Under the pieces are notes generated by a model. The model worked only from the letters and a program-made list of their open reading frames with translations. It was not told the origin of the DNA and ran no database searches. A program made the translations under genes and the position numbers. A stretch of DNA of 64,000 nucleotides from Candidatus Micrarchaeota archaeon. Lineage in GTDB: Archaea > Micrarchaeota > Micrarchaeia > Anstonellales > Bilamarchaeaceae. The stretch is taken from NCBI GenBank assembly GCA_038046765.1, contig JBBSVN010000005.1:32001-96000 (forward strand), written 5' to 3'. Below are positions 3,544 to 59,313 of the stretch, piece after piece. Position 1 is the first letter of the stretch. Each line of letters starts with the position of its first letter.

Positions 3544-3620
3544 CTAAGAAAAAAGTGCATTTTCTAGTTACAGACCTGTAGGGCAATGTGCATATATTTT
3601 TCTATTCGCATTGCCAGTCG
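3544..3620 (-). ncRNA. Copy A of unrecognised structured leader RNA motif (upstream of tRNA-Met)
   Basis: CGACT-GGCAATG...CATTGCC-CTACAGGTCTGTAA followed by AGAAAA/TTTTCT hairpin; matches copies at 13158, 50742, 59237. Confidence 0.75.
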
Positions 3621-3679
3621 GTTCTATACTCCTATAAAATAGTTCAAAACACAGAACTCAAAACAGAGAATTATAAAAA

Positions 3680-3814
3680 TGCCACAGGCCTGATTTGAAC
3701 AAGCGACCCCACCGTTTCTGCTCATTTTGGGAGTACTTCAGCTTCACAGTTTCTTTTAGTTAAATAAATTTCTAAAAGAAACAGGTGTGCTCTCCCAGGC
3801 TGAGCTACTGTGGC
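3680..3814 (-). tRNA. tRNA-Phe(GAA) with two introns (3743-3783 at 30/31; 3716-3735 at 37/38)
   Basis: GCCACAG/CTGTGGC acceptor; removing both introns gives CACCG-CT-GAA-GA-CGGTG; canonical BHB (CACA/UGUG, bulges CCU and AAG) at first intron. Confidence 0.9.
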
Positions 3815-3936
3815 ATTAGTAGAACAAACTATGAAGGAATATTAATAAAAAGCGTTGGGTTGCAAACTTTGGATTTTTTAAGTTAATACAGTATAACCAA
3901 TAACCTTAAATTACCATTCTATCACATTTAGTTACA

Positions 3937-4199
3937 GTGAGGAGTAGGAAACTACGTTGCTGCAAAGCAATGAGGAAGTTCTGCCCACGATGAAGGTTTT
4001 GGCTCTAAGGGCTAGCAAGATTCAACAGAAACGAACCAGACTCTGGATGAAACGGGTTTCTTGTAATCTAATGAACGTGCAAGGTCTCTGGACCGCTTCT
4101 TAAAATCCGCAAGGATTTTCAAGAGCTCTTGAAACGGTAACGTTTCAAGGGATAGTCTAATGTTTTCTTAAAAAACAGAAGGCAGACTATACTTCTCAC
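3937..4199 (+). ncRNA. rnpB: RNase P RNA (compact, ~263 nt)
   Basis: P1 GTGAGGAGTA/TACTTCTCAC; conserved regions GAGGAAGTTC, ACAGAAA, GATGAAAC, GTGCAAG, AACAGAAGGCAGACTA. Confidence 0.9.
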
Positions 4200-4283
4200 A
4201 ACTTTTATTCTATTTGTTTTTTCCACTAATCTTTAATTTAGACAACTATATGCTTTAAAAAGTGTTATATACTATATTATCTT

Positions 4284-5651: not shown

Positions 5652-5655
5652 TATG

Positions 5656-5790
5656 TTAAAGCTTGAATCGTTTTCTTTTACATTCCGGGCAAATCCCTGT
5701 TTTCCTGGTTCTTCTTAGGTACACAACAATTTCTTCAGGCATGTCATGCATGCCAGCAAAAGCATAACTTTTAAATTGAAAACTACCCAT
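5656..5790 (-). pseudogene. 44-aa ORF resembling the N-terminal zinc-finger part of an ISL3-type transposase (remnant)
   Basis: MGSFQFKSYAFAGMHDMPEEIVVYLRRTRKTGICPECKRKRFKL*; single CPEC knuckle, truncated. Confidence 0.35.
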
Positions 5791-5905
5791 TAGAAACTGT
5801 CTAGGTTTGATAAAGTTCATATTTGGTTTACACCGAATATGATTTTATCATTTTTCTATCCCAAACTGGGAGAAGCGCCGGAATTTATTATGTTGGTTGA
5901 ATTAA

Positions 5906-6427: not shown

Positions 6428-6524
6428 TTGGTAACTTCTCCAAGACAATTTAATGCAATTGGGGAAATGGACGAATATCTAGCTTCTAAATAATTCGTTT
6501 CGTATTCTAATTAACTTTCAATAC

Positions 6525-7847
6525 CTAATTCATCTTCAATCCAGCCATATTTCCGCCTTTCATCATCTTCTCAATTTGTGATCGGAATCCTCGATTCTTT
6601 CTAAACATGTTCATCATCTTTTCAATCTTTTCAAACTGTGCTAGGAATTCTCGTACGTCTTTTTCGCCCGTCCCGCTTCCCTTAGCAATTCTCGCAACAC
6701 GAGTTGGCTGTTTCTTTAAAAGTGCGGCATCTTTCTTCTCCTTTTTAGTCATAGAATTAATCATTGCTTCGTATTTTTTCATTTTTCCTTCGCTTTGTTG
6801 AACTACGTCTTTTGGCAAATCGCTAACTCCGAGCATTCCCATTACATTTCCTAATGGTCCTAGTTTCTTAGCTGCCTTTAGTTGTTGATAAAAAGTTTCG
6901 ATCGTAAGTTCTTCGGATTCGATATTCTTTAGGTTTTCTTCTTTTGCGATTTTTTGTATTTTTTCCATTAAGGCCCCGATATCCGGAACTCCTAATAATT
7001 TTCCAACAAATTTTTCAGAATTATAAATTTCAAAATCTTCAACTTTTTCTCCAGTTCCAATGAATGCGACTTTCGCTTCGGTTGCGCCAACTGCGCTTAA
7101 AGCTCCACCTCCTTTTCCGCTTCCATCCATCTTAGTAACGATTACTCCGCTTAGTTTTGCGATTTTGTTAAATTCCTCTGCCTGTTTACTTGCAATTTGT
7201 CCAATGTCACCACTAATAACAAGGTAGACTTCTTCTGGCTCAAGTACATCGTTAATTTTTTGTAGTTCGCTAGCTAAATCGTTATCAAACGCACTTCGAC
7301 CTGCGCTATCAACAATTATTACATCGCTTTTAAGAGTTTTGATTCCGCGTTCAACAATTTTTGAAGCATTTTTCTCATCCTTGATAGTGAAGAATTCAAC
7401 ATTAGATTTCTTTGCTAACTGTTCCAATTGTTCTTGCGCAGCAGGTCTATCAACGTCGGCAGCAATAACTCCCGCACTTAGGCCTCGACCTTTATAGAAA
7501 TTAGCTAGTTTGTTAACGCTCGTAGTTTTACCAGAACCAAACAAACCGCAAATAAGTACTTTGTGTTTATCCATTCTTGGGGTGTAACTCGTTCCCATTA
7601 GGTTTACAAGTTCTTCGTACACAACTTTTAGTACGTGTTCCTTCAAACTAAGCGCCTGCATTTTATCTGTTTTTAGGCTTCTCTCTTCAATTCGTTTTGA
7701 TAAAGCTAAAACTAGTTTTACGTTTACATCGCTTGAAATTAATACGCGTTGTAAGTCTTTAATCAAAGCTCGCACTGCTTCTTCATCAACGTAAGCTTTG
7801 CCGCTTAATTTGGCAAGCGTTTCGCGTAATCCTTTACCTAGATCCAT
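6525..7847 (-). CDS. srp54: Signal recognition particle protein SRP54
   Basis: GLFGSGKTT, DVDRPAA, DSAGR, TKMDGSGKGGGALS, Met-rich M domain with RIAKGSG. Confidence 0.97.
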   Translation of the reverse strand: MDLGKGLRETLAKLSGKAYVDEEAVRALIKDLQRVLISSDVNVKLVLALSKRIEERSLKTDKMQALSLKEHVLKVVYEELVNLMGTSYTPRMDKHKVLICGLFGSGKTTSVNKLANFYKGRGLSAGVIAADVDRPAAQEQLEQLAKKSNVEFFTIKDEKNASKIVERGIKTLKSDVIIVDSAGRSAFDNDLASELQKINDVLEPEEVYLVISGDIGQIASKQAEEFNKIAKLSGVIVTKMDGSGKGGGALSAVGATEAKVAFIGTGEKVEDFEIYNSEKFVGKLLGVPDIGALMEKIQKIAKEENLKNIESEELTIETFYQQLKAAKKLGPLGNVMGMLGVSDLPKDVVQQSEGKMKKYEAMINSMTKKEKKDAALLKKQPTRVARIAKGSGTGEKDVREFLAQFEKIEKMMNMFRKNRGFRSQIEKMMKGGNMAGLKMN

Positions 7848-7918
7848 TATTATCTACTCGTTACATATAACTTTTCTTATATCTTCTCGCGCGTCATTTT
7901 AAGTATCAATCGCAATTC

Positions 7919-7957
7919 GACCATGCACATTTGAATTTTTTATTGCATGGTCAGTCG
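7919..7957 (-). ncRNA. Partial copy (5' half) of the leader RNA motif upstream of SRP54
   Basis: CGACT-GACCATGCA...TGCATGGTC; lacks the CTAC..GT.TGTA core. Confidence 0.45.
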
Positions 7958-8080
7958 AACATTAATATTTGTTTGTAAAATGTATAAACTTACTTAACTT
8001 TCTAATTATTTTCGACGTTTATGAAGAATATTAATATGTAAAACTAGTTTAAAATCTAAGCTTTGCACCAAAAGTGTGGA

Positions 8081-11251: not shown

Positions 11252-13129
11252 TTAATTAAATATCGGCCTTCTACTTAATTCCGTTTCAAGCGAAAGTTTT
11301 TCAAATGGCTTTCCAGTTGTGTGCTTGTGAATTTCACTAACTAGTTCTTCAACAGCGTATTCTTTCTTTTCGCCAGTTGCCCTGACAGTTACAGCCAATT
11401 TACCTGATTCGATTTCCTTATCTCCAATAACTGCAATGTACGGGCTCCATTCCTTTTCTGCATCACGAATCTTTTTACCTAAAGTTTCGCTTCGGTCATC
11501 GCAATCAACACGAACACGTTGCAACTTTAAATCATTGGTTAGTTTCATCGCGTAATCCTTATGTTTATCGCTAACAGGAATAATTCTAAGTTGCGTTGGA
11601 GACAACCAAAGAGGGAACATTGCTTTTCTTCCCTGTTTCATTTCCATTGCCTGTTTTTCTAAAAGTGCATAAACAACTCTTTCAACAGCACCAGGAATTG
11701 AAGTGTGCAATATTGGACCTCTTTTCTTTTCTCCCTTTTCATCAATGTAATTCACATCAAATCGTTCGCAGTTTTCAACATCGATTTGTACTGTGCTCAT
11801 ACCGCTAGCTTTACCAGCGTTATCGATAAAGTTCATTTCAAATTTAGTTATGAAATATGCATATCTTTCTTGATAAAGTTCGATTAACATTGGCCGGTTT
11901 CTTTTTTTGAGCATTGCCATGTACCAATCCTTATTTTCATTAAAGAAATCAGTTTGTGCCCTGAATGCTAGTTCGTAATCAAGTCCAAGATCCTCATTCC
12001 ATGCTCTACATAATTCGTATTGATTAGAAAATTCTAATTTTGCCTGGTCTAAATCAGCGCAAAGTGTGTGCATATCTGGCATGCTAAATGCTCGCAATCT
12101 TTTAAGTCCAGCGAGTTCGCCACCTTGTTCGCGTCTAAATGAATAGTGGGTTAATTCATAAATCCTAAAAGGTAGATTTTTGTAGGTAATTACTGCGTCA
12201 TGTGCGCAGAGGAACTGACCGAAACAGGCACTAAATCTCAAGAAAAACTGCTTGTTATCGCTCTTTAAAGTATATTGACGTGCTGGGAATCGGTTCAAAT
12301 AACTCTTTAGCGCAGGGTGTTCAAAGTCATACATTATAGGGGTTTCAACTTGATGCGCTCCGTAATCAACTGAAATATCAGTTACGTGCTTTTCGATTAG
12401 TCTTTTTATTAAAAGTCCTTTTGGAAGCCATCTGAAATTACCCGAATCGCTTGCTGGTTCATAATTAACTAATGAATGTTCTTTCATTAATTTGATGTGT
12501 GGGGGTTCCTCCGAATATGCCCGGACTTTTTTTACTTCATAATCAACAAATTTCTTTAGGTTTGGATACTTTGCGTAATTGAATTTTTCCGGCTCAATCA
12601 AAGACCCGTCAACATCTAAGACATAAACATTGGTTTTCATTTCTGATTCTTGCTTTAAGCTGCTTGAAACTACTTCAGTTTCTTCTTTTATTTTTCCAAC
12701 ATCTCCGTTAGCGCTTAATTCTCTAGAGAGTTCGCTTAATGGGTGTCCTTTAGTTTTTATTGAATAAGCTTTGTACCAGCCAAAAGGTGCATGATCGCAA
12801 GTATATCCTTCTTTTTTTATTTTTTCTTCTGCTTTTTGCAATACCTTTAGTGCTACTCGTGGGGCAGATGGCTTAGAAGTTAAATGAACAAAAGGATAAA
12901 GTAAAATATTCTTTGTTTTTATTTGGTTTGCAACTGCTATGCTTTCTTTAGTTAGTAAATCTGAAACCGCTTCGACATCCTCATCTCCTTTTTCAATCGA
13001 AGTAAAAATTACCAGTACTTCTTCAGCACGCATTTTCTTTTTAGATTCATCAATTACTTCTGCGTCTTCAATTGCTTTAGTTCTTGCTTCAATTTCAATA
13101 TAATCCGAATGTATTGCTAAAATTCTCAT
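11252..13129 (-). CDS. thrS: Threonyl-tRNA synthetase, archaeal type with N-terminal editing domain
   Basis: MRILAIHSD, YPFVHL, APFGWYK, LRFSACFGQF, FRREQGGEL, RLRAFSMPDMH. Confidence 0.97.
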   Translation of the reverse strand: MRILAIHSDYIEIEARTKAIEDAEVIDESKKKMRAEEVLVIFTSIEKGDEDVEAVSDLLTKESIAVANQIKTKNILLYPFVHLTSKPSAPRVALKVLQKAEEKIKKEGYTCDHAPFGWYKAYSIKTKGHPLSELSRELSANGDVGKIKEETEVVSSSLKQESEMKTNVYVLDVDGSLIEPEKFNYAKYPNLKKFVDYEVKKVRAYSEEPPHIKLMKEHSLVNYEPASDSGNFRWLPKGLLIKRLIEKHVTDISVDYGAHQVETPIMYDFEHPALKSYLNRFPARQYTLKSDNKQFFLRFSACFGQFLCAHDAVITYKNLPFRIYELTHYSFRREQGGELAGLKRLRAFSMPDMHTLCADLDQAKLEFSNQYELCRAWNEDLGLDYELAFRAQTDFFNENKDWYMAMLKKRNRPMLIELYQERYAYFITKFEMNFIDNAGKASGMSTVQIDVENCERFDVNYIDEKGEKKRGPILHTSIPGAVERVVYALLEKQAMEMKQGRKAMFPLWLSPTQLRIIPVSDKHKDYAMKLTNDLKLQRVRVDCDDRSETLGKKIRDAEKEWSPYIAVIGDKEIESGKLAVTVRATGEKKEYAVEELVSEIHKHTTGKPFEKLSLETELSRRPIFN

Positions 13130-13157
13130 AGTATTGACACCCTATAAACTAGCTCAC

Positions 13158-13285
13158 TTATACAAAAGCGGCCCTTCTTACTACATACTGGTAGGACGCA
13201 GCACAAATGATTCCTTATCTCGTGATCAGGATTGCCGATCACGATCTGTCCAAAACATTCTGTTTTGTACATGGCTGCGTCAGTA
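13158..13285 (-). ncRNA. Copy B of leader RNA motif (thrS 5' UTR), with extended inner stem
   Basis: TACT-GACGCAGC...GCTGCGTC-CTACCAGTATGTAGTAAGAAG; two extra internal hairpins. Confidence 0.75.
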
Positions 13286-13314
13286 ATAAACGTTAGCTAC
13301 TAATGGTATTAATA

Positions 13315-15030: not shown

Positions 15031-15105
15031 TTTGTATTTTTGCAATTTTCTATAAAAATGTTCAAAAAGGATACTTTTATAAATTTATGAATTTATATTA
15101 TATTT

Positions 15106-15170
15106 GTGGTTGTAAGTCCTCTGAAAGCTATGAGGCCTCCGTGAGTGAGGGTGGGAGCAAGTAAGTTGGG
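15106..15170 (+). ncRNA. Putative small RNA convergent on DUF3800 gene
   Basis: GC-rich island with two CCTC/GAGG hairpins; TTTATAAA box ~25 nt upstream. Confidence 0.45.
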
Positions 15171-15794
15171 TTACCACATTTTATTAATTATTTTTATCTT
15201 ATTCTTGATTAAATCGTAATACTGCGTATTTTTATGTTCTAACTTATGAAAAAGTGCACCGCAGAAAAAATCAACTGCCTGAAGACTGCATTCTTCATCT
15301 GATTTTTTATGGTCAATGCAAAGATTTTCTTTTAGTTTAAGAGGAGTACGAAACTGCATGATATAATCATCAAAAGAGTTTCTTGCTGATTTGTAAAGTG
15401 ATCTATCAAGAACTATATGCACTTTAGTTGTGTGATTTGTTCCCTCTGTTAATAATACGTGCTCAATTAATCTACCGACAATAAAATTGTAAAGTATTGG
15501 CGGTGTTTCTTTTAGATTACTGTTTTTGGTATTCTGTTTGTCTATAAAATAAGCATAAAATGAAACTTCTGTTCTTGCTAATTGTTCCAATATGAAAGTT
15601 CGCATATCTTCGTCAGTTTTAGAAAACTTGAATTCTGGAATATCACTAAGTTTTTTCTTTAGTTTGTTTCTTGCTTTTTTAAATATTTTTTGCATTTCTT
15701 TTGGTTCATTTAAAGTTAACGCACCGACTATAAAATGTTTTGTCGAGTTTTGTGAAAAACCGAGGTCTCCTGACTCATCTATGAATATAAACAT
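15171..15794 (-). CDS. DUF3800 family protein (RNase H-like)
   Basis: MFIFIDESGDLG, EFKFSK, LQAVDFFCGA. Confidence 0.88.
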   Translation of the reverse strand: MFIFIDESGDLGFSQNSTKHFIVGALTLNEPKEMQKIFKKARNKLKKKLSDIPEFKFSKTDEDMRTFILEQLARTEVSFYAYFIDKQNTKNSNLKETPPILYNFIVGRLIEHVLLTEGTNHTTKVHIVLDRSLYKSARNSFDDYIMQFRTPLKLKENLCIDHKKSDEECSLQAVDFFCGALFHKLEHKNTQYYDLIKNKIKIINKMW

Positions 15795-24083: not shown

Positions 24084-24816
24084 TTATTTCCCAAACCTTC
24101 TCATTCTGTTTGCGTATTCTTTTAATGCATCATCAAAATCTGCCTTTGTAAAATCCGGCCAGAGCTTTTTAGAAAAATATAATTCACTGTAACTAGTTTG
24201 CCAAGACATTAAACCGCTTAATCTTTCTTCGCCCGAAGTTCGGATAACTAAATCTGGATGTGGCAAGCTTGCTGTGTATAAATTCTCCTCAATTATTTTT
24301 TCATCTACTTTTTTTATTCCCTTAGAAATGATCTGATTTACTGCATCAACTATCTCCTGTCGTCCACCGTAAGCTAGTAAAAGATTTAGCTGATATTCAG
24401 TATTTTGTTTGCTTAATTCTTCAGCTTTTTTTATCATTTCTTGTATCTTGACTGGAAACAAACCAAGTCTTCCAAAGAATCGCACGCGAACATTATATTT
24501 ACCCTTTTCATCGCTCATTATCGCTTTTTTAAGATTATCAGTAAATAGTTCAAAAAGAGTTGAAACTTCATTTTCATCGCGATCAAAGTTTTCTGTACTA
24601 AAGCCCCACATTGTAAGCATTTTAACTTCTGATTCTTTGCACCATTTTAAAACTTCCCCAATGTGCCCGATGCCTGTTGCGTATCCTTCTTTTATGCTTT
24701 TTTTATTTTCTTTAGCCCATCTCCGGTTTATGGCTATATAGTTTTTTATTCTATAAAGAACTAATTTTTCCATCCGGGATAATGGCTATATGTTTTGGTA
24801 CTTCTTTTTCATCCAT
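24084..24816 (-). CDS. uppS: Polyprenyl (undecaprenyl) diphosphate synthase, split: join(24768..24816, 24084..24727)
   Basis: Exon 1 MDEKEVPKHIAIIPDG + exon 2 NRRWAKE...FSTENF...YGGRQE...IRTSGEERLS...RRFG. Confidence 0.92.
24728..24767 (-). other. Candidate 40-nt BHB/BHL-type mRNA intron in uppS
   Basis: Outer helix CCGG/CCGG, central helix AUGG/CCAU, AAA bulges; cutting after the 2nd bulge nucleotide gives GAU GGA AAC CGG (D-G-N-R). Confidence 0.85.
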
Positions 24817-25774
24817 GTTTCTTTAACCCCCTATCTATTAATTTTAATGAATTAAAATTATCAATAAATTTGAGTATGTCTGCCTGATTTTGTATCACTA
24901 ATATACTGGCTGTTGTAATTTTTCCATTTCTTATTCCATTATCCTTGTAAATATGCGGTCTTTCAATTCCCATTTTTATTAATATTTCTAAACATTCCTC
25001 TAATATTCTTTTGTTGTGTTGCTTTATGGATATTCTTCTTACTTTGTTTTTAACTATGCTTACACTACCATCTGCATCAAAAAACCCAGCTAAAAAGTAT
25101 TTTTGTAATTCTAAGTTATTTAATATCTTCGGGACATTTGTTTTTTCCTTTTTATTTCCTGTTGGAATTTGGCAAATTTTAGTTAGAAAAAGGTGGATTA
25201 CTTTTGATCGTCCGATCAATCTGTAAAAATTATGCTCCTTAAATAAGGGCGGTTTGTAAGCAAATAACTTGATAAATATCTCTTGTAGATATTCTAAATG
25301 ATGTTTATCAATTGTTGTAATTCGAATCTCTGCGTTATACTTTGATCCATTTCCTATCGTATCATTGGGGTTAGCTAAATGTCCATCACCCATAATATAT
25401 CCTAACAAATAAGCAAGTGACGAATCAATTTGTTTAGGTAAAATGTATTTTTTTGTATTCGTTCCACCTAAATATGTTATTTTTTTGTATAATTCTAGTT
25501 CAGTAATCTGGAGTATTTCTGCTAATTTCAATAATTCCGAAATTGGTATTCCTACATCTCTTTTCGCATCCCCTAACCAGTTTATTATATTCTTGTATTT
25601 GTTGTTACTCATTTTAGCTATTTCTTTGTAAGTATTTTTTCCGAACTTAGTTTTTAAATAATTTTTTATGCTATAAGCTCGTACTTCGTCGTTTCCCTTT
25701 TCCTTAGTTATTTTAAGGTCTTGAATATAACTTCCAAGCTCTATAACTGGGTTCTTGTCCACCATATCAATCAA
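24809..25774 (-). CDS. Free-standing LAGLIDADG homing-endonuclease-like protein with N-terminal HTH
   Basis: YLLGYIMGDG and FLAGFFDADG motifs; no intein splicing termini; AT-rich. Confidence 0.85.
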   Translation of the reverse strand: MIDMVDKNPVIELGSYIQDLKITKEKGNDEVRAYSIKNYLKTKFGKNTYKEIAKMSNNKYKNIINWLGDAKRDVGIPISELLKLAEILQITELELYKKITYLGGTNTKKYILPKQIDSSLAYLLGYIMGDGHLANPNDTIGNGSKYNAEIRITTIDKHHLEYLQEIFIKLFAYKPPLFKEHNFYRLIGRSKVIHLFLTKICQIPTGNKKEKTNVPKILNNLELQKYFLAGFFDADGSVSIVKNKVRRISIKQHNKRILEECLEILIKMGIERPHIYKDNGIRNGKITTASILVIQNQADILKFIDNFNSLKLIDRGLKKHG

Positions 25775-31379: not shown

Positions 31380-32654
31380 CTAGTTCTTCCTGATTTCAAT
31401 TATTTTTTTATCTAAGTTTTTAAAATTCTTTATTCTGTCTAGTTGCGGGAGAAATAACCTTAATGCAATTTCTATGTTTCTTATTTTTCTTTTTACTTCT
31501 GCCTTTATTCTCCCTGCTTCTATAAACATCCTTGACTTAGCATGTGCTTTTTTAAAATCCCGAAGATGCTCTTTCCTCTTTATTTCTGGTCCGATCATTA
31601 TTCTAAATTTGCTCAATTCTTTTTCTTTTAATCTTAAAATTATCCTTATCTTATTTTCGTTGACATCTATTAAACTTTGGAGAGTTTTAAATCCATTTTG
31701 TCTAAGATAATTATTTAATAATTTTTCGCTTCTTTTTATTTGACCCCACAATATGTCCTCGTTTAAATCTGGTTTTAAGATTTCTAATTCGTATATGTGC
31801 TCATATTTGGCCTTCATCTTAGCAAGCTTTTGCTCAAAAGTCTGGGGGTCATCAAAAAACCTTTTTGTTGGATTTTTCAGGAATTTTTTTGTAAGTTTTT
31901 TAAATATTTTAAAGTTATTTAATGAAAATGCAGCAGCTACATTTCTATTCCTGTCTGTGGGGTCTATGAAAATTAATGGAGCGTTAAATTTTTTTCTAAT
32001 CCTATCGATTTCTGTTTTTTTATCTATCTTTTCTAGCTGTAATAATGTTCCCTCCTCCCAGTTCTGCGCATTTTTCAATGTATTTAGAAACGTTTTATAC
32101 TTTAGTATCAATAGTTCGCATAAGTAGCCTGAGATTCCTTCGTATCTAATTTGTGCACCGTATAATTCATTGCTTTTTAAGAATTTTTTTAGTAGTAATA
32201 CCTCCTCTACCATATCTTTTTTTAGGTTTTTTATAATATACTTTGTATGTAATACACTTCTATCTACTGCGCTTGCCATTTCCGTTGCATTTTTTATTCT
32301 ATAAGCTGGAACTACATCTATTTTTTTACCCTTATAATATAGTTTTATGTAAGGATGTTCTGCATAAGATATCTCGTATCTTTCATTGGGAAATGCCTCT
32401 TCTACGCAATTTCTAACTACTATTTCAAATTCATTTTTATTCTTCTTCCTATCAAAAAGTAGAAATATGTCTATATCCGTACTTTGCCGAAGGTATGTTC
32501 CTTTTGCGATACTTCCTACAAGTACTGCAATAAACTCTTTGGATGTGGCCTGAAGCTTTTTTATACACTTCGCTGCAAGCTTCTTCTCATATCTATCTTC
32601 TTCTTTTGTTGGTTTTATACCTTCTAGCACATTCTTTAGAAAATCATCTTTCAT
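31380..32654 (-). CDS. cca: CCA-adding tRNA nucleotidyltransferase (class I)
   Basis: GSIAKGTYL, DIDIF, YAEHPY, DVVP, SAVDRS, GISGYLCELL, DPTDRNRNVAAA. Confidence 0.95.
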   Translation of the reverse strand: MKDDFLKNVLEGIKPTKEEDRYEKKLAAKCIKKLQATSKEFIAVLVGSIAKGTYLRQSTDIDIFLLFDRKKNKNEFEIVVRNCVEEAFPNERYEISYAEHPYIKLYYKGKKIDVVPAYRIKNATEMASAVDRSVLHTKYIIKNLKKDMVEEVLLLKKFLKSNELYGAQIRYEGISGYLCELLILKYKTFLNTLKNAQNWEEGTLLQLEKIDKKTEIDRIRKKFNAPLIFIDPTDRNRNVAAAFSLNNFKIFKKLTKKFLKNPTKRFFDDPQTFEQKLAKMKAKYEHIYELEILKPDLNEDILWGQIKRSEKLLNNYLRQNGFKTLQSLIDVNENKIRIILRLKEKELSKFRIMIGPEIKRKEHLRDFKKAHAKSRMFIEAGRIKAEVKRKIRNIEIALRLFLPQLDRIKNFKNLDKKIIEIRKN

Positions 32655-36779: not shown

Positions 36780-39700
36780 TTAGTCCACTTTCTTTTCATG
36801 TGCGTTTGCTGGGGGTTTTTCTTCCTGTGCATTTACTTCTGTTCCATTTGTTTTTTCCTTCGGTACATTTGCTTGGTCGGTTTCTCCTGCATTCACCGTA
36901 TTTACTACGTCTGTTTCTTGCGTCGTATCTGGTTTACTTTCAAATGCGGCAAAGCTAGCGACCTTTTCCCCTTCGTTAAGTTTGATTATCCTAACTCCCA
37001 TCGTGTTCCTGCCGATTATCGAGATTCCATTCGCTCCTACGCGTATTGTCTGGCCTTTGTCAGTTACAACTAAAATCTCATCGTTTTCATTTACGCATTT
37101 AGCTCCGCAGACAAAACCATTTCTTTCTTCGGTTTTTATGTTTATTATTCCGCTTCCGCCTCGCCCTTGTAATCGGTATTCTTCAATCTCGGTTCGTTTT
37201 CCGTATCCGTTTTCAGTTATTGTCAATAATACGGAAGTATTGCAAACAGTCATGCTGACAACTTCGTCATCATCGTCCATCCTAATTCCAATTACCCCTT
37301 GGCCGGTTCGTCCTATTTCGCGTGCATCTTCTTCCATGAATCTTATTGATTGACCTTTTTTAGTTGAAATTAAAACGCTTTGCTTGCCATCGGTTTTAAC
37401 TACATCAACTAGTCCGTCCTTTTCCTTTAATGTAATTGCAATAATTCCGTTTTTTCTTGGATTATTAAAGTTTGCTAGTGAGGTTCTTTTTATTATCCCC
37501 AACTTAGTTGACATCATTAAAAATTCATTTTCATTGAACTTGTCAACAGAAATCCATGAGGTTACCTTTTCATCTTTAAGATCAAGCAAGTTAACTATCG
37601 TTTTTCCTGTTGCATGTCTTGAAACCTCTGGGACTTTATATGATTTCAACCAAAATACTCTTCCTAAATTCGTGAAGCATAACATGTAATTGTGATTTTT
37701 AGTTACAATAACATCGAGTATTGCATCTTCTTCTTTTGTCTCGCCACCAACTCCCTTTCCGCCTCTTCTTTGTACGTGATACTCGTTTAATTTCATTCTT
37801 TTTATGTATCCTCTTCCAGTTATTGCTAGTACAACGTCATCGTTTGGAATAAGCGCTTCGTCATCAATCTCCTCATCGCTATCAAGTATTTCTGTTCTTC
37901 TTGGGTTGTTGTGTTTTTCTTTTATTTCTGCTAATTCTACTTTTATAATTTCTAAAATTTTGTTAATATCTGAAAGAATATCTTTTAATTTTAAAATTTC
38001 TTTCATCAGTTCGCTTAGTTCTTCCTCTATCTTCTTTCTTTCTAATGAAATTAATTTTTGGAGTCTCATATCTAAAATAGCGTTAGCTTGTTTTTCGCTT
38101 AGTTGATAATTATTCATTAATCCAAGTCTTGCTTCCTGAACATCTTTTGATTTTTTTAAGAATGCGACTATTGGTTCAATGTTGTCTAATGCCTTAGTTA
38201 ATCCTTCTAATATGTGTGCTTTATCTGTTGCAACTCTAAGTTCAAATTGGCATCTTCTTGTTACAATTTCTTTTCTAAAATCTACAAATTCACGAATCAT
38301 TTCATATAACGGAAGTACTTTTGGTTGCTTTCCAACAAGTAGTAAATTTATTATTCCAAAACTTGATTGTAAACCCGTATGCGTATAAAGTTGGTTTAGT
38401 GTTACTTCTGGGTTGGCATCTCTTGTTAATTCAACCACTACTTCTATTCCAGTTCGGTCGCTTAAATCATGTACTCCGCGAACTCCTTCGATTACCTTAT
38501 CCCGAACTTTATCTGCAATCGTTTCGATGATACTAGTTTTAGTTACCTGGTATGGAATTTCTTTTATTATTATCGCATTTTTCTTATGGTCTATTTCGCA
38601 TTTTCCTCTTAATTTTATGCTTCCTCTTCCTGTTTTTTGAGCGTTATAAATCCCGTTTCTTCCTAATATTTGTCCGCCAGTTGGAAAATCAGGGCCCAAA
38701 ACATGGCTCATAACCTGTTCTTCATTTGCGCCACTAATGTAAGCCAATATTCCATCAACAATTTCGCCTAGGTTATGCGGTGGCATGTTTGTTGCCATAC
38801 CAACTGCGATTCCAGAACTTCCGTTAATTAATAAGTTTGGAAATTTACTTGGCATTACTGTCGGTTCCTTTAATGTTCCATCAAAATTAGGTACAAAATC
38901 TACTGTTTCTTTTTCTAAATCATTTAGCATTTCTTCAGCAAGTTTTTGTAATCTTACCTCGGTATATCTCATTGAAGCGGGCGGGTCTCCATCAATCGAA
39001 CCAAAATTTCCCTGTCCTTCTACTAAAGTGTATCTCATGCTAAATTCTTGAGCCATTCTTACTAATGACTCGTAAATAGGTGAGTCTCCGTGTGGATGGT
39101 ACTTACCCATACAATTATGAGAAATCATTCCGTTTGCAATAAATTCATGCGAGTTTTCAACTTGAATGTCGTAAGTTTTTTCGATACCCGCGTCCTCTAT
39201 TTTTTCCACTTTTAAGAAATATGTGTCATTGTCTAAAACTTCATTTATGAAATTAGCTAAAGGAGATTTCATTTGATTTAATTTTTCTTGTATCCCCAAA
39301 TCAACAATCTGGGTTCTTCCAAGATTTTTTTCTTTTAAGTCCTTTGAATATCTAATTTTTGTTCCATCAGGGTATTTTATCCCCATTTTGAATTTTTGGT
39401 TATCTGCATCTTGGTACCAGCCACCGCCTAAATGCTTATTACTAAATTCTCCAAATATTATCTTTCCTGCATATGGGATTTGGTCATATTTGCAAACTTT
39501 CATATCTTGTCCTATTTTTTCCTTACCTGCTATTTTTCTTTCATCAAAGAATTCTAACATTTCCGCTAATTCAATTGCAAATCTACTTCTTACTTCAAGT
39601 GAGTGTGCTGGGAAATTTCCCTTAGCCATTCTACCATTTATCATGTGTGCTTCTTTGGGTTCCTGCACATATCTTGTACTAAAAATACCTATATGTTGTA

Positions 39701-40718
39701 AAATAATCTGAATCTGGTCAATCATTTTTTCTGAAACAGAGACATATCTCAAACAGTTTCGTTCGCTATCTATGCTCCCATCTCCATCTATTAATCCGCT
39801 TAATAATGCGTTTATAACTGGTTTTGGTGAAGAAAATATTTGTTTAGGAATAAATTTTGTTTCTGCCAAAGCGTTTTCTAATTCAAATGTTTTTACTAAG
39901 AAGTTGTTTACATCTACTTTATTTACCCTTACTAGATACATCTTATTTAGAAGAATTTGGCCTGTTGTTGTTTCTACCTCATATTCTCTTTCTTCCAATG
40001 TTGCTTCATAATTAAATTCTTCATTTAATATCTCTATTAATTTTTGGATTACTGCAATCGAGTTACTCGAAACCGCGCATCTGTAATCCTTACCGTGATT
40101 ATATCCTTTTTCAACCCAACCATCTGATAATAATTGACCTAAAAGATACGCTATGTTTTCATTTAAGTATACTTTTTTACCTTCAAATTCTCCAAGTAAC
40201 ACATGCTTTTTTATGTTTGGATAAATAGATCTTGAAACGACGTATTGATTTTCTTTTAAATCCTTCGCTTCAATCCAAACAAATTCCATTTTTTCATTCA
40301 ATATCTTGAATTTTTGTGATTTAGTAACTATGTTTGAAATTCCATTTGCAAGTTTGATTTTTATTAATTCTTTTTCAGGCATTTCGTATAGCTCGTTAAC
40401 TTTATTTTCTCCATTTTGAGTGTAAACAATGTCTCCTTTCTCTATTTCTTGTATTGGGATTAATCCCCTTTTAGCTGCAACTAAGGTATCTTTTACAAAA
40501 CATTCCCCAACTACTCTAGCTGATTTTTTAGTTGGTTTACTATGTGTGTTTCCTAGTTCGTGCATTGAAAAAAGTATTCTTCTATGTACTGGTTTTAATC
40601 CATCTCGAATATCGGGAATTGCCCGTCCAACAATTACGCTCATCGAGTAGTTTAAGTAACTTTCTTTTAGGTCTTTTTCAATTGACTGGTTGATGATTAT
40701 TTCGGACATAAATACCAC
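36780..40718 (-). CDS. gyrA: DNA gyrase subunit A containing an intein
   Basis: [23 protein letters not shown], GyrA-box QRRGGKG, beta-pinwheel repeats. Confidence 0.96.
39114..40502 (-). mobile_element. 463-aa intein with LAGLIDADG endonuclease in GyrA
   Basis: [10 protein letters not shown] ... [36 protein letters not shown] and LSGLIDGDG. Confidence 0.95.
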
Positions 40719-43346: not shown

Positions 43347-43399
43347 GATTCCGTTCTAGCGGAAGTTTTAGGGTGCTTTTGAAGGTTGGAGCGGAAACG
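43347..43399. repeat. Palindromic ~52-bp direct repeat, copy 2
   Basis: GATTCCGTTCTAGCG...GGTTGGAGCGGAAACG. Confidence 0.85.
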
Positions 43400-43445
43400 C
43401 AAAAGAGCTCTGCATTTTTTAAATTGTTGTATTTATAATAATTTT

Positions 43446-44318
43446 ATGGTTAGAGAGTTTAAACTAGGTAAAGAAATAATTGCTGCAACAAGAAGTTATG
43501 TTCAAGTAGCCTTAAGAGATGCACTTAGAAAACAGGAAATGCTGGAACCAGATGGATTGTCCATGCAGGAAGGTTTACCAAAGAGAAAACACTATGATTG
43601 GACAGAAGAAAAACGAGCTTATCTTATCCAACTTCTAGAAGAACATCCTGATTTTGGTTATCAAGAAATAGCAGATGCAATAAATGAGAAATTTCCAGAT
43701 GGAGTTAAAGTAGACAGATATAAAATTAATGCGAAGCTTTCTTTTGACATTTACAAAGAAAAACCAGAATTAAGAAGGATAGCAGAATACCGACCATCTT
43801 GTGAATGGACAAAAGAAAAAAGATCTTATTTAGTAAAACTTTTAGTCGATTTTCCTGAACTTAGTCATGAAGAATTAGCAGATAAGCTAAATGAAAAATT
43901 TCCGAACGGAGTTCAAGCTGAAAAAGACACCGTTAAGGGTATAATCAGTCGTATTCACCAAGAAAACAAAGAATTAAGATGTGATTCCTTAATCTTTGAA
44001 GAACCTCGCGAACTAGATAATCAAATATTAACTAGAAATTATGCCTCAATTCCAGAAGATATTTTAGGTCTAAGTTTTGGTGAATCTTCACTTCCAAGCG
44101 ATCCAGAAAAGCATTTGTTGCATCTTGAAAAATTAGCTTGGCTTAAAGTAGCTTTAGAAAACTTGTCTGCTCGTGAAAGATATATATTAGAAAAACGTTT
44201 TGGGCTTGGTTGTGAAGAACAAACCTTAGAATCAGTTGCACATGAAATTGGTATTTCAAGGGAAAGAACTAGACAAATAGAAATCAAGGCACTTTCTAAA
44301 TTAAGAAGATCTCTTTAG
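43446..44318 (+). CDS. Protein with two Myb/HTH-like repeats and a C-terminal sigma70 region 4 domain
   Basis: WTEEKRAYL../WTKEKRSYL.. repeats; LSARERYILEKRFGL..TLESVAHEIGISRERTRQIEIKALSKLR; ATG start chosen within ORF 43386..44318. Confidence 0.8.
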   Translation: MVREFKLGKEIIAATRSYVQVALRDALRKQEMLEPDGLSMQEGLPKRKHYDWTEEKRAYLIQLLEEHPDFGYQEIADAINEKFPDGVKVDRYKINAKLSFDIYKEKPELRRIAEYRPSCEWTKEKRSYLVKLLVDFPELSHEELADKLNEKFPNGVQAEKDTVKGIISRIHQENKELRCDSLIFEEPRELDNQILTRNYASIPEDILGLSFGESSLPSDPEKHLLHLEKLAWLKVALENLSARERYILEKRFGLGCEEQTLESVAHEIGISRERTRQIEIKALSKLRRSL

Positions 44319-50517: not shown

Positions 50518-50741
50518 AATCTTTACCTGTGTGCATTTTGTAGCTTATAATTCATTCTAATTAGCATATAATTTATCGTCGTAATCTAATATGCCCAAAA
50601 GGGTTTAAATTGGTTTGTTTTTGGGTAATCTTGCAGAACCGATTATCTTAAAATAACTTGCTTGAATTTATTAGTCTACTAGTTCTTTCTAGAAGAGAAA
50701 TCCTTTTCTCTTAAATAAGCTAGTCGATAATTGATAATAAT

Positions 50742-50816
50742 CGACTGGCACTGCCATATGGATGTATTTGTGCAGTGCCCTACAGGTCTGTAATTAGAAA
50801 ATACACTGTTTTCTAA
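50742..50816 (+). ncRNA. Copy C of leader RNA motif (upstream of tRNA-Gly)
   Basis: CGACT-GGCACTGC...GCAGTGCC-CTACAGGTCTGTAA-TTAGAAAA/TTTTCTAA. Confidence 0.75.
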
Positions 50817-50847
50817 GCATGCCTGTTGATAATAAGCTAATACAAAT

Positions 50848-50940
50848 GCGCCTGTAGTCTAGTGGTAATCGCAAGTTGTGATCACTAAAGGATCGTAGCC
50901 TTCCAAGCTACTGACCCGGGTTCGAATCCCGGCGGGCGCA
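50848..50940 (+). tRNA. tRNA-Gly(TCC) with 22-nt D-loop intron (50867-50888)
   Basis: GCGCCTG/CGGGCGC acceptor, GTAGC-CT-TCC-AA-GCTAC; BHB AGUG/CACU. Confidence 0.93.
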
Positions 50941-53140: not shown

Positions 53141-53252
53141 TATCTTTCACCTTATTATAATTAATAAATTGAATGTCAAAGTAAGGTTTAAATTTGTTAG
53201 TTTAGCTCTGTCTGCCTGTTTTTTAACTATTTTTATTTAATTAACCTATACT

Positions 53253-53443
53253 GCCAGGATGACAGAATCCGGTTATCGTGCTTGTCTCGAAACCAAACCT
53301 TTTACATTGGTTTTTCTAAGAAATTTATTCTTAGAATGCGAGTTAACAAGTTCCCTTGCGGGATTGTAGGTTCAAAAGTTTTCGGATTGTTTTTCAAAAC
53401 GCTAGACGCGTAACTGAAAACTGAACATATCCTGCTCCTGGCG
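53253..53443 (+). tRNA. tRNA-Ser(CGA) with two introns (53292-53344 at 37/38; 53376-53428 in T-loop, 58/59)
   Basis: GCCAGGA/TCCTGGC acceptor, CTTGT/ACAAG stem, variable arm TCCC/GGGA, G73; helices CUCG/CGAG and GUUC/GAAC. Confidence 0.9.
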
Positions 53444-53498: not shown

Positions 53499-53652
53499 GG
53501 GCCTGTAGCTCAGTCTGGATCAGAGCGGCACCGTCCTAAGAGTTCTGTGTCATGTGTTTTACGTTTTGTTCGTTATTCGTTCAAGACGCTAAACTGAAAA
53601 CACAAAACTCGCATGTAGGTGTAGGCCATGAGTTCAAATCTCATCTGGCTCG
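53499..53652 (+). tRNA. tRNA-Arg(CCT) with 78-nt intron (53539-53616, 37/38)
   Basis: GCACC/GGTGT stem, T-arm ATGAG-TTCAAAT-CTCAT; one acceptor mismatch and unusual G32. Confidence 0.82.
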
Positions 53653-53722: not shown

Positions 53723-54283
53723 ATGACAAAGAAATTCGTTCTTGATACTTCGCTTTTTGTAAACCCTCACGCACGCGGACACTTTGGAAAAACTCCTGAC
53801 TTGGCTGTTAAAGGATTCTTGAAAGCTGCAAAGAAGAAGAATGCAGAATTTTACATGCCACCAAGTGTATTTAAGGAATTAAAAAATTTTCTTAAATCTA
53901 AAACTGCCGATGAATTAGAATTGTTTTTGAAGAATAAAGCACCTAATATTTATGCTACTTACTTGCCAGCTGCAGTACTTTATGATTTTATCGAAGATAT
54001 GCGAAATCGACTGAACAAAGGATTAAGATTAGCCGAAGACTATGCTCAAGATAATCACCCAGATAATGCTGCAAAACTTGGGAAATTAAGGGAAAAATAC
54101 AGAGAAGCAGTTCGTGCTGGCTTAGTTGATAGCAAGGAAGACTTTGAACTTATTCTCTTATCAAAAGAAATAGATGCTCTTTTAGTTTCTAGTGATGAAG
54201 GCGTAATAAAATTTGCAACTAATATTGGGTGCGAATGTTTGAATGCAAGCAAATTAAGCGCGATGTTAAAGAAGTTAAGATAA
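53723..54283 (+). CDS. HARP (protein-only RNase P, PIN domain; 'RNA ligase partner' family)
   Basis: FVLDTS, YMPPSV, R.NKGLR.AE, LREKYREA.R.G.VDS.ED, DEG. Confidence 0.9.
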   Translation: MTKKFVLDTSLFVNPHARGHFGKTPDLAVKGFLKAAKKKNAEFYMPPSVFKELKNFLKSKTADELELFLKNKAPNIYATYLPAAVLYDFIEDMRNRLNKGLRLAEDYAQDNHPDNAAKLGKLREKYREAVRAGLVDSKEDFELILLSKEIDALLVSSDEGVIKFATNIGCECLNASKLSAMLKKLR

Positions 54284-56191: not shown

Positions 56192-57973
56192 CTAAGCCAC
56201 CTTAGCTTCCTTATTCTCATTAAGCATTTCCTTTACAATTATTGCATAAGCTGGTCTTGATAATAAGAATCCTAAAACAGCTCCTAGAATTGTCGACGTA
56301 GCAAAACCGATTAATTCAGTTATTCCAGAGAATAATAATGGCATCATCGCAACAATCGCAACAACTATATTTGTTTTAATTATCTCAAAAGCTGAAGCTA
56401 TTTTAGATTCAATCGATCCTCCATCTTTTTTCCTTATTTCATCAGTAATTACAATCTGCGCGTCAACACCAACACCAATAGCAGCTATAATTCCAGCTAC
56501 TCCTGCTAAATCGATGTTAAATGGCGAACCTCCTAAAATAGATAATAAAATTATAAGTTCGCTAATACTTACTCCAACTATTGGTAAAATCATTTTAAGG
56601 CTTCTATACCTAAGCGAAATAAAAATTCCGATTGCGATTAATGAAGCTGCGATACCAAGTATACTTATTTGTAAGAATTCTGCACCTAGTGTTGCAGGTA
56701 TTGTTGTTTTACTTCCAAGAGATATTTGAACTGGTAATGAACCTCCTTTTAATATACTTTCAATAAAACGTGCCTGCTCAAGAGCCAGATTTGCCTTATT
56801 TGTATTTGCACTTAACTGTGTTGTTGGGACGCTTCCGCTGATACCTACTGAATTTCCTGATGGTGGTAATCCCTTTGTTAGTTCTTCTCCTAAAACTGGC
56901 GATGTTAACAACCCTACGGCGGACCATTTTTCTATAGATATGCTTTTATCAATTGGATTATAATTAAACGTCGGTGTTATGTTTTCCTCTGCAATTTCTT
57001 TAACAATAAATCCTTTTTGTTTTAGGTAATCCTTTACTTGTAAGGACGCTTCTGAAGAAATGTATGCTTTTGTTGCGTTGGTTTTTTGAGTTATATTTGT
57101 TTTATTTTGTAAAATTGTTTCTTCAAAATAAAGTTCTATGTTGTCACTATCTGTTTTAAGTGTATTCTTAGCTGCATTTATTGATTCGTAATCATTTAAC
57201 TGGCTATTTGTACCCGTTGAAGAAATTGCATTTGCTGCCGCCTCTGCTGCGCTTGTAAGTTTGTCTCTGTTTATAACAATTATTGCATCTGTTGGTCTAT
57301 CTAAAAACATGTATACTGGGAATTTTGGTTTATTTTTAGCAGTACTGGCAAATTTCTTTGCGCCTTCGTTGGTCATTGTAAAACCAACTTCCCAATCTCT
57401 GCCGGGGGAACTTCCTGGTACTTTTATCCTGATTGTCTGTGTGTATATATCTTCTGAAGTTAAAGCTGTTTTACCATCTATTACTGCAAGAAAAACTCCT
57501 TGTTGTGAAATCGCTTTTTCTATTGCACTTATTTGTTCATCGTTTGTATTTGCCAGTTCTACGTTTATTTCTGTATCTCCTATTGATTTGACTTTTACTT
57601 CGCTTAATCCAAGAACCGATGCTCTGCTTTTTATCGTGTCTATCATTTTATTCATTGTTTCTGCATCAACTTTCTTTTCCAGTATAATTGGTATTTTGGT
57701 ACCACCGCTAAAATCAATTCCAAAATGAAGTCCGTTAAATGCGAGGTTAAACATTGCCAGTAAAACAATCGCAGCCATTCCGAACATTCGTAGTTTAGTG
57801 TCCTTGTAAATTATTGCCATTCCTCCAAAAAGTATGAGTGCCGCAGCAAGTGTCATTCCTGCGAATTTTGAATAACCTGCGATTAAGAATATAAATATTA
57901 AAAATAATGCCCCTAAGAAAGCCATGCTTCGGTCTAGTTTTAACTGGAATTTTGGTCCTTGTTGTTCGTTCAT
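56192..57973 (-). CDS. secD: Preprotein translocase subunit SecD
   Basis: FGIDFSGGT, LKGGSLP, ATLG, IDLAGVAGIIAAIGVGVDAQIVITDE. Confidence 0.92.
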   Translation of the reverse strand: MNEQQGPKFQLKLDRSMAFLGALFLIFIFLIAGYSKFAGMTLAAALILFGGMAIIYKDTKLRMFGMAAIVLLAMFNLAFNGLHFGIDFSGGTKIPIILEKKVDAETMNKMIDTIKSRASVLGLSEVKVKSIGDTEINVELANTNDEQISAIEKAISQQGVFLAVIDGKTALTSEDIYTQTIRIKVPGSSPGRDWEVGFTMTNEGAKKFASTAKNKPKFPVYMFLDRPTDAIIVINRDKLTSAAEAAANAISSTGTNSQLNDYESINAAKNTLKTDSDNIELYFEETILQNKTNITQKTNATKAYISSEASLQVKDYLKQKGFIVKEIAEENITPTFNYNPIDKSISIEKWSAVGLLTSPVLGEELTKGLPPSGNSVGISGSVPTTQLSANTNKANLALEQARFIESILKGGSLPVQISLGSKTTIPATLGAEFLQISILGIAASLIAIGIFISLRYRSLKMILPIVGVSISELIILLSILGGSPFNIDLAGVAGIIAAIGVGVDAQIVITDEIRKKDGGSIESKIASAFEIIKTNIVVAIVAMMPLLFSGITELIGFATSTILGAVLGFLLSRPAYAIIVKEMLNENKEAKVA

Positions 57974-59061
57974 TTTTCCACCGGAGTTTTCTTTGGTTCT
58001 TTTGATTCCACATACATTAAAAGGATTACCGCGTTAATACCCCACGTAGCAAACAAATCTCCAACTAACCCTACTAATGCAACTGCAGATATTTCGTAAT
58101 ATGTTGATATTCTGGTATAAAGCGAAATTATGAAAAGTACTGCAAATGCAATTATTGCAGCGATACTCATTGTTGCTCCTGTCTTAAACGCATCAAACGC
58201 CTTTTCTCTTGGGTCTCCTTGTCTTTTTAACATACGCATTGTAAGTAAAATGTCTGTGTCTAAAGAGAATCCTGCTAGCATTAATAATGCAGCTAAGGTT
58301 GGAAGAGTAAATGGTATTCCTAATAATCCCATTCCGCCTAGCGCAAAAGTTACATCTGCTGCTGCTCCGATTATTACTGCGAGACTCGGGACAAATGTCC
58401 TAAAGAATATGAATACGAAAATTATGCTTACTATTGCTGAATACAATACTGTCTGTTCTGCTTTTTCTACAAATTTTCCCCGTAATAATGGAGAAACTGT
58501 ATGTACGCTGATTGAAGTGTATTTTACGTATTTTTGTATTGGACCAGATATTGACTGCTGGTAGTTATCATAAACTTTAGTATATGCTGCACTTACCTGT
58601 TTATCGATGCTGTTTAATCCTTCATCTTCTGTTATCGTTTTTTGGATTCTCGCAAGCGTTAACATCTGATTGGCTAGTTTTATCATTTCTGGTTTATCTG
58701 TTGTTGCGTTACTTAAATTACCAAAACTTTCTTTTTGAACCTGTGCATCAAGAAGTTTTGTAAAATTTGTTTTTATGCTTTCAGCATTAACTAAGTCCAT
58801 ACTCTGGCCTAATTCTATTTCAACGGCATATCCGGTTGGTAAAGCGTATGTAATAACTGTTCCTTGCAAACCTTCTTTTTCTAAATTTGCTTGTAACTGC
58901 TTAGAGTCAAGGTTTTGGTCTACAGTTAATTTAATTAACGTACCTCCCCGAAAATCAACTCCCGGTTTAATACTTTGCGCAAAGTATAAACTTAAGATTA
59001 GTAAAATTATTGGTATTATTACCAATAATTTATAGTTGCCCTTGTATATATTAGGAATCAT
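57970..59061 (-). CDS. secF: Preprotein translocase subunit SecF
   Basis: GVDFRGG, FRTFVPS, LAGFSLDTDILLT. Confidence 0.92.
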   Translation of the reverse strand: MIPNIYKGNYKLLVIIPIILLILSLYFAQSIKPGVDFRGGTLIKLTVDQNLDSKQLQANLEKEGLQGTVITYALPTGYAVEIELGQSMDLVNAESIKTNFTKLLDAQVQKESFGNLSNATTDKPEMIKLANQMLTLARIQKTITEDEGLNSIDKQVSAAYTKVYDNYQQSISGPIQKYVKYTSISVHTVSPLLRGKFVEKAEQTVLYSAIVSIIFVFIFFRTFVPSLAVIIGAAADVTFALGGMGLLGIPFTLPTLAALLMLAGFSLDTDILLTMRMLKRQGDPREKAFDAFKTGATMSIAAIIAFAVLFIISLYTRISTYYEISAVALVGLVGDLFATWGINAVILLMYVESKEPKKTPVEK

Positions 59062-59148
59062 AAAATCAAATACTTCTCTAAGTAGATATTTTTGTTGTCA
59101 AATAATATAATAGCTATTATTTTTAATTGTTAGGTCTAAATATATTAT

Positions 59149-59183
59149 ACTGGCAGGTAGCTAGTGGCTCTTAGCTAGTAGCT
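59149..59183. repeat. Degenerate heptamer tandem repeat
   Basis: actggca ggtagct agtggct cttagct agtagct. Confidence 0.55.
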
Positions 59184-59236
59184 TTATAATTAAATTGATT
59201 TGTTAACCTTATAATAATGGGTTTATAAAAAAATAA

Positions 59237-59313
59237 CGACTGACGCGACCGTTATTTTATACTAAGTGTCGCGTCCTACAAGTCTGTAATAAGAAGAGCC
59301 TCTTTTTTCTTAG
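59237..59313 (+). ncRNA. Copy D of leader RNA motif (upstream of tRNA-Cys)
   Basis: CGACT-GACGCGAC...GTCGCGTC-CTACAAGTCTGTAA-TAAGAA/TTCTTA. Confidence 0.75.

Follow-up and report, generated by a model that had tools for sequence, protein, structure and literature searches.

Several kinds of small structured or repeated element have been described next to genes. The palindromes of REP/RAYT systems and of the IS200/IS605 elements are imperfect hairpins in which a base is bulged and the tetramer at the 5′ foot is conserved, and they occur in tandem arrays. Theta (HDV-like) ribozymes are reportedly found at the 3′ ends of phage tRNAs, folded as an HDV double pseudoknot. The PeSL cassettes of T4-like phages are dispersed intergenic sequences of ca. 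100 bp with a stem-loop and a Shine-Dalgarno (SD) sequence ending at the start codon (PMC2839356), and the intergenic repeats of halovirus HF2 are 29–58 bp long, have proven promoter activity and keep their positions within the genus (PMC8707807). Here we analyze a dispersed hairpin element, hereafter the cassette, in a 64,000-nt stretch (the window; positions 32,001–96,000 of contig JBBSVN010000005.1, or C5) of the genome of a Candidatus Micrarchaeota archaeon (GCA_038046765.1, designated G000; 90% complete, in 20 contigs).

The cassette is dispersed, lineage-specific in position, sometimes tandem, and enclosed by several types of transposon ends. It is best explained as a family-specific, non-autonomous mobile element with a core of ca. 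80 nt, a unit of ca. 105 nt and 133–154 bp between inverted repeats. It is not a riboswitch and is undescribed in the sources searched; no paper on it was found in that literature, the supplementary motif tables of RNA screens lying outside the search. The reading we favor, to which we give about an even chance, is that of a mobile hairpin cassette, borne in part by MITEs (miniature inverted-repeat transposable elements) and most likely kept as a portable leader at gene starts.

Copies, structure and gene context of the cassette

Copies were found by descriptor and profile searches and then with a covariance model, R1. The core pattern matched four times in the window, versus 0.03 ± 0.17 matches expected (none of 100 shuffles reached four), and these copies have the coordinates and strands given in a first-pass annotation of the sequence; as reported there, copies 1 to 4 lie in sense orientation before tRNA-Met, thrS, tRNA-Gly and tRNA-Cys, respectively. 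The element is longer than first described, extending as far as the gene start and spanning ca. 105–145 bp. Copy 1 (3465..3625, minus strand; stem 3615–3582; 88.5 bits with the covariance model) carries in its 3′ part a two-hairpin insert of ca. 50 nt, at about 3483–3530. Four nucleotides past its conserved end begins an intron-bearing tRNA (3291..3464, minus strand; Rfam tRNA, 31 bits; anticodon not called by ARAGORN), probably tRNA-Met, as labelled in the first-pass annotation. Copy 2 (13130..13291, minus strand; stem 13281–13195, with a two-hairpin insert) is flush with the ATG of thrS, coding for threonine-tRNA ligase (11252..13129, minus strand; NF003068, 818 bits). Copy 3 (50737..50847, plus strand; stem 50747–50754 with 50772–50779; 90.4 bits) ends at position +1 of tRNA-Gly(TCC), which has a D-loop intron (50848..50940, plus strand), and copy 4 (59232..59342, plus strand; stem 59242–59249 with 59268–59275; 100.3 bits) at that of the intron-containing tRNA-Cys(GCA) (59343..59544, plus strand); in these two copies the first G of the stem is 101 nt from tRNA +1. 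A fifth copy, of a divergent subtype (7848..7962, minus strand; first stem G at 7952), is flush with the SRP54 ATG at 7847, and scored E 0.11 with the covariance model and E 0.003 in the phylum sample.

The main hairpin has 7–8 bp, a bulged top pair and a loop of 13–18 nt. Its six central pairs were intact in all of 19 copies, with many two-sided changes, and the covariation first noticed in this stem holds with its compensatory arms. The top mutual-information pairs were all within the main stem, both in an alignment of 34 rows and in one of 103 distinct rows including relatives; the latter was fitted to the covariance model and consists of related copies, so that its counts are of cells, not of events. 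Other parts of the initial description did not stand. Loop length, thought to vary widely, is fixed, the long loops being secondary two-hairpin inserts: that of the thrS copy is common to a copy before tRNA-Val on contig C9 (92% over 65 nt), and that of the Met copy to a copy on C2 (83% over 36 nt). The UAC/GUA helix, proposed as an alternative hairpin, switch or pseudoknot, is paired in 61% of cells over the 19 copies and has its C-G pair broken in 11 of them; two candidate 3′ hairpins (78% and 61% paired over the 19) also show no convincing covariation. Covariation of the 5′ tetramer with the core found no mutual-information or covariation support in the 103 copies beyond C9 and G49, which are near-invariant (98 copies each; C-G together in 94) and next to which pairing is frequently lost (C-A in 39, G-A in 34). 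Across the 103 copies no more than four bases are near-invariant and there is a single helix; ca. 20 copies have a tandem G.A/A.G pair inside the main stem. Single-copy folds beat shuffled sequences in three of four copies tested (z −2.1, −3.8 for copy 3 and −3.5 for copy 4), the SRP54 copy giving z −1.6.

No Rfam family was found over the motif at the gathering threshold in the window, nor at E ≤ 10 at eight loci of this genome and 20 loci of a relative, which agrees with the first impression that no known ribozyme, T-box or riboswitch matched. T-box, H/ACA, hammerhead, hairpin, HDV, attC and bulge-helix-bulge motifs were set aside on their general features together with this blank Rfam result, rather than by dedicated tests.

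R1 identified 27 copies in the genome at E ≤ 0.01, the SRP54 copy being weaker. By manual count, 13 are flush with a tRNA and one is a tandem partner; four are flush with the ATG of thrS, of tyrS (assigned by Pfam tRNA-synt_1b), of a PIN-like gene and of a gene of unidentified product; six are sense-upstream without being flush, including those of aIF2-beta and an epimerase; and three have no sense gene, two abutting a convergent gene at its stop codon and one lying between convergent genes. Copies pointing into such stop codons occur on C1 and C10. The translation-related, sense context first proposed holds for the four window copies; genome-wide, contexts are neither all translation-related nor all sense, and include unrelated and antisense cases. 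In nine copies classified by script, the first stem G was 101 nt from tRNA +1 in five, 99 in one, 107 in two that belong to a second subtype, and 158 in a single copy with an insert. Cassette 3′ halves also occur alone before other genes.

Some further sequences accompany the cassettes and tRNA genes. Both this genome and the relative G001 have intergenic tandem repeats of 7 bases that adjoin tRNAs and copies of the cassette (window, about 59165–59185; L122, L177). Two-hairpin mini-inserts of ca. 50 nt, within cassettes at window 3483–3530 and about 13212–13270, are found in both orientations and have relatives elsewhere in the genome, and similar shared hairpin pairs occupy the T-loop introns of several tRNAs. 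Three more tRNA genes of the window, without cassette (3680–3814, minus; 53193–53443, plus; 53499–53652, plus), have multiple non-canonical introns and were missed or miscalled by ARAGORN; they are probably tRNA-Phe, tRNA-Ser and tRNA-Arg.

Distribution in relatives and transposon ends

A covariance-model search of relatives, as first suggested, did find homologues. R1 revealed weak but real ones in 4 of 98 genomes of the family, and a wider model, R2, in 19 of the 98, from nine other genera. Outside the family, the sample of 151 genomes of the phylum gave one weak match (E 0.004), without the stem on inspection. The exact core pattern had seven matches in 60 relatives, none with the stem, and no matches in metagenome contigs; two patterns identified five loci in viral contigs, none scored by the model. 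In a pattern scan of all species genomes, 23 of 24 loci were from Micrarchaeota, and the single non-archaeal locus was discarded, not being scored by the model.

The relative G001 contained 36 matches with R2 at E ≤ 0.5. Among 35 copies, and measuring from the stem, 20 end 91–105 nt before an ATG (most 94–96), six end before the 5′ end of a tRNA-like sequence at 95–97 nt (SRP RNA may be one of these sequences), and nine are unclassified; most copies are in a fixed register of 94–97 nt before ATG and tRNA alike. The downstream proteins resemble RpoN, Spt4, FEN1, aIF2-gamma, L30, S27e and GlmS, names read by eye from the N-termini. One small membrane-protein gene has a cassette in both genomes: in G000 (C1:31866–31974) it is antisense and located at the stop codon, in G001 (L176) it is sense and located at the start codon.

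Orthologous sites were mostly empty, implying that there is no conserved regulon. The thrS site was filled in one of 30 genomes, this one, and not in the 36-copy genome G001, although a few of the 30 best thrS matches may be paralogues; the rpoN site was filled in one of 30, and that of the tRNA-Pro after rpoN in two of 30, although the genus concerned has a third genome, where this site is empty. The cassette at the 5′ end of this tRNA-Pro lies inside the rpoN operon. Several genomes contain head-to-tail units of ca. 100–105 nt (L132, L198, L200), and copies point into the 3′ end of 5S rRNA (L052/L096, L201), beside which a core-less allele exists in G025. The 3′ boundary of the cassette is precise and the 5′ boundary is variable.

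Terminal-repeat comparison identified three copies in this genome (C2:66855–66997, C4:93604–93796 and C7:95300–95444) bounded by terminal inverted repeats (TIRs) with CAGTA ends and a perfect 5-bp duplication, and a fourth, decayed TIR copy with a duplication matching in 4 of 5 bases. These ends, limited to 3–4 of the 27 copies, match those of L042 and L047, autonomous ISH3-like elements of relatives that share both ends and are likewise flanked by 5-bp duplications. In G025, the right end of one cassette copy is identical over 19 nt to that of L042, and the 5-bp duplication is also perfect in L098 and L123. Duplications of 5 bp are described as typical of ISH3 (PMC7002104). Within the order, 8 of 176 genomes have the corresponding transposase genes; because these were all below the curated NF033541 cut-off (best, 158 of 225 bits), we use only the label ISH3-like. 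None of the 10 autonomous ISH3-like loci examined contained the cassette core.

In other genomes the core occurs in the same register (left end about −43 to −52, right end about +89 to +104) between other inverted repeats, of at least three TIR types besides the ISH3-like one, in a search that covered core-carrying MITEs only. TA duplications flank several copies of one of these end types, whose assignment to IS630 was not borne out, with only weak matches below cut-off. Four identical cassette copies are at contig ends in G025, and copy-specific inverted repeats were detected in 37 copies of other genomes (p < 0.0002). Nevertheless, TIRs with duplications are not a family-wide trait, and the five window copies lack them. 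The first-pass annotation had named a MITE, with copies in random context, as the alternative to a functional RNA; the three copies with TIRs and perfect duplications bear out the first part, but most copies are not in random context. A long target duplication was dropped, having given a weak signal only, as were L113 and L114, which are chance matches.

A tree of 103 cores (78 columns, midpoint root, half of the forks open) placed the G000 copies in one clade (100/98), with two rows of other genomes, that contains the ISH3-type copies of G000. Cores group by host, not by end type, and monophyly of seven ISH3-type copies, a group defined by its ends and tested after the first tree was seen, was rejected (p-AU 0.0012, 37-row subset). 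These two results indicate that the core persists and that the ends are borrowed, which suggests that the persisting unit is the module rather than the ends. One internal module under several unrelated transposon ends is unusual for MITEs.

Function and origin of the cassette

As a portable gene-start module, the cassette would have multiplied in some lineages and been retained at sites that bring its 3′ end up against a gene start. It would there most likely be transcribed as a 5′ leader whose hairpin may stabilize or insulate the transcript; before protein genes its 3′ end would supply the SD sequence, and from pre-tRNAs the leader may be cut off by RNase P/HARP. The genome holds a HARP-like gene (53723–54283), next to tRNA-Arg. 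A weak match to archaeal RNase P RNA was also seen in the window (3937–4199, plus; 48 bits, below the gathering value of 84; E 5.5e-11). Where ends exist, DDE transposases acting in trans would spread the cassette, while flush copies without ends would probably come from gene conversion via tRNA 5′ homology or from end-adjacent deletion, both putative routes.

The SD part of this proposal was examined in G001, using for the duplexes what we take to be the anti-SD sequence: their mean energy was −7.7 kcal/mol in 20 protein copies versus −0.1 kcal/mol in six tRNA-like copies (p 0.0004), the SD sequences of protein-gene copies being at −14 to −8. This favors transcription through the 3′ end of the cassette, although operon read-through could also explain it.

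Several results weigh against a leader role. The one RNA run among the sequencing runs, with a share of 0.06, provides no evidence of a transcript. The SD signal is weak in G000 (three protein copies, mean −2.5), and a promoter matrix made from the genome TATA did not detect a strong promoter consistently placed ahead of the stem; its best mean position implies a start 5–9 nt before the gene, inside the cassette 3′ half. Antisense strands also fold (z −2.6 and −2.3). As RNA, the two strands of the stem fold about equally well (the sense strand is the better one in 59 of 103, p 0.07); as DNA, antisense is slightly better (sense ahead in 29 of 103), and thus folding alone does not establish a function at the RNA level. 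From ca. 33 tRNA genes, a rough total from a heuristic search with many non-canonical introns, 13 have the full core, two a remnant and ca. 18 none, including three in the window, and a tRNA gene on C15 retains only a deletion derivative, indicating that the cassette is dispensable. The route of spread also poses a difficulty: no ISH3, DDE_Tnp_1 or Y1 transposase was found in this assembly, which is 90% complete, and no copy-specific TIR was detected in 21 copies of G000, 35 of G001 and nine of G035 (p 0.3–0.8), in whose leader-type copies the direct-repeat signal is weak (p 0.007–0.07), which leaves the spread of leader-type copies unexplained.

Unlikely, although the best-surviving of the rivals, is that the mobile cassette acts as a terminator plus promoter, its hairpin and T run stopping upstream transcription and its 3′ half being a core promoter, with a TATA-like box at −36 to −30 and transcription beginning about 6 nt ahead of the tRNA or ATG. 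The start implied by the matrix, which for G000 as well as G001 lies at +90 to +94 relative to the stem, is consistent with this, as are the genome-wide TATA box, which begins about −30/−29 from leaderless ATGs, the solitary 3′ halves and the location of most two-hairpin inserts upstream of the TATA-like box; PeSL stem-loops, too, work as terminators (PMC2839356). However, mean matrix scores at this position are negative (−5 to −8), the box is broken in many copies and absent from TIR-bound ones, the SD sequences of protein-gene copies would fall upstream of such a start, and the Met copy has its 50-nt insert between box and tRNA. The SD and matrix results thus weaken a simple promoter role of the 3′ half, which is kept as a rival. 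Nor are TATA-like boxes placed at a fixed distance, contrary to the ca. 25–30 nt upstream of the element first proposed. Copies in G001, unlike those in G000, share a run rich in T at −32 to −25 relative to the stem. The spacing here is longer than that of the fixed-distance promoters (26–27 nt) of leaderless tRNAs in Nanoarchaeum (PMC10100707).

A selfish repeat without host function, in which template switching keeps the stems and the flush sites are survivors of selection against disruptive insertions, seems improbable. It would agree with the lineage-specific occupancy, the copies pointing into convergent stop codons and into the 5S rRNA 3′ end, and the existence of deletion derivatives; template switching can reportedly create and maintain hairpins (PMC8794818). 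On the other hand, copying of one arm onto the other would erase the tandem G.A/A.G pairs of ca. 20 stems, and neither the near-invariant C9 and G49, outside the stem, nor the register fixed within a few bases at many tRNAs fits a repeat without function.

A bolder proposal, for which we see only a slim chance, is an independently replicating structured RNA/cDNA unit of ca. 105 nt, joined to the ends of stable RNAs or mRNAs, reinserting flush with gene starts and captured between unrelated transposon ends; this would be a mini-retroelement that targets gene starts and possibly processes itself, a kind undescribed in archaea. In its general form, as a self-propagating structured RNA, either a small ribozyme or reverse-transcribed, joined to RNA ends and reinserted, we regard it as quite doubtful. 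It would explain the flush junctions with mature tRNA 5′ ends, the tandem units of ca. 100–105 nt, the capture by many kinds of transposon ends and the precise 3′ and variable 5′ boundaries. Other favorable observations are the flush position at the tRNA-Pro inside the rpoN operon, a processing site and not a start; a copy abutting the antisense 5S rRNA 3′ end, which reads like the 5S 5′ end; and a copy directly after the stop codon of the reverse transcriptase (RT) of a diversity-generating retroelement (DGR). But four near-invariant bases and one helix are poor for a ribozyme, RT was present in 12 of 30 genomes and missing from several carriers, there is neither poly(A) nor a long target duplication, and no copy is near the 15 other RT loci; a general link to the DGR RT, with 1 of 16 loci, was therefore rejected.

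The weakest alternative, the riboswitch or attenuator of translation genes proposed in the first-pass annotation, is largely refuted and highly improbable: 13 tRNA genes, thrS, tyrS, SRP54 and aIF2-beta are indeed downstream of copies in this genome and Rfam has no match, but occupancy is lineage-specific, as at thrS, targets are unrelated (an epimerase, membrane proteins), no expression-platform helix is conserved, only the main stem covarying, and copies occur within MITEs and in antisense. From that interpretation there remains an unrecognized, covarying, sense-oriented structured element before tRNA genes, without switch or pseudoknot.

Should the cassette be a portable gene-start leader, the 5′ region of ca. 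40% of the tRNA genes and several core genes of this small symbiotic archaeon would be given over to a mobile element, and its relatives would have done likewise at different genes, a fast, repeat-driven rewiring of housekeeping expression. The case also advises caution in RNA-motif searches, because a mobile repeat can mimic a riboswitch through strong covariation and sense placement before translation genes.

Other genome features and comparison with known systems

The genome contains a DGR (C4:70753–72506; L359) with a variable region (72423–72506), a template region and an RT, as well as remote variable regions at C4:137372–137448 and C1:24793–24873, and a second template/RT pair at C4:12424–13392 (L348). 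Among RVT_1 matches L348–L360 in genomes of the family, 13 of 16 begin at model position 55–69, with open frames of 114–247 aa, and the RT of G000 is split over two frames where a run of GA repeats lies; the DGR RTs of Micrarchaeota may have a programmed frameshift that is conserved. Within the window there are also an Rfam DUF3800-X RNA (15105–15178, plus; 47.7 bits), overlapping the end of an opposite-strand DUF3800 gene (15171–15794, minus); a 310-aa protein with an N-terminal HTH and a C-terminal sigma-70 region 4 domain, in an archaeon (43386–44318, plus); a GyrA with a LAGLIDADG intein (36780–40718, minus); and a stand-alone LAGLIDADG protein (24809–25774, minus).

Like the REP and IS200/IS605 palindromes, the cassette has a bulged imperfect hairpin, a 5′-foot tetramer and tandem arrays, but it has a long A-rich loop and is upstream rather than downstream of genes. 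A link with REP/IS200 was rejected, since Y1 transposase was absent from six genomes (G000, G001, G035, G023, G025 and G003) and no cassette was present at 30 Y1 loci. Both the cassette and the theta ribozymes are small structured elements abutting tRNAs; the cassette is on the 5′ side, has one helix and matches no Rfam ribozyme. The likeness to ISH3-family MITEs is clear in the three TIR copies of this genome and in copies of G025 and G028, with CAGTA-type TIRs, 5-bp duplications, sizes of 143–193 bp and no ORF. In contrast with such MITEs, most cassette copies have neither TIRs nor duplications, and the core is also found within at least three other TIR types and flush with gene starts. The HF2 repeats share with the cassette their repetition in intergenic sequences before genes of an archaeal system, whereas cassette positions are not conserved and its core is a covarying hairpin. 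The PeSLs resemble the cassette in size, stem-loop, SD at the start codon and occupancy differing between relatives, and differ from it in having sigma-70 promoters, being at accessory phage genes and moving by recombination between copies. The cassette, for its part, is chromosomal, in an archaeon, and precedes tRNAs and core genes, with a putative promoter only, and has been taken up by transposon ends.

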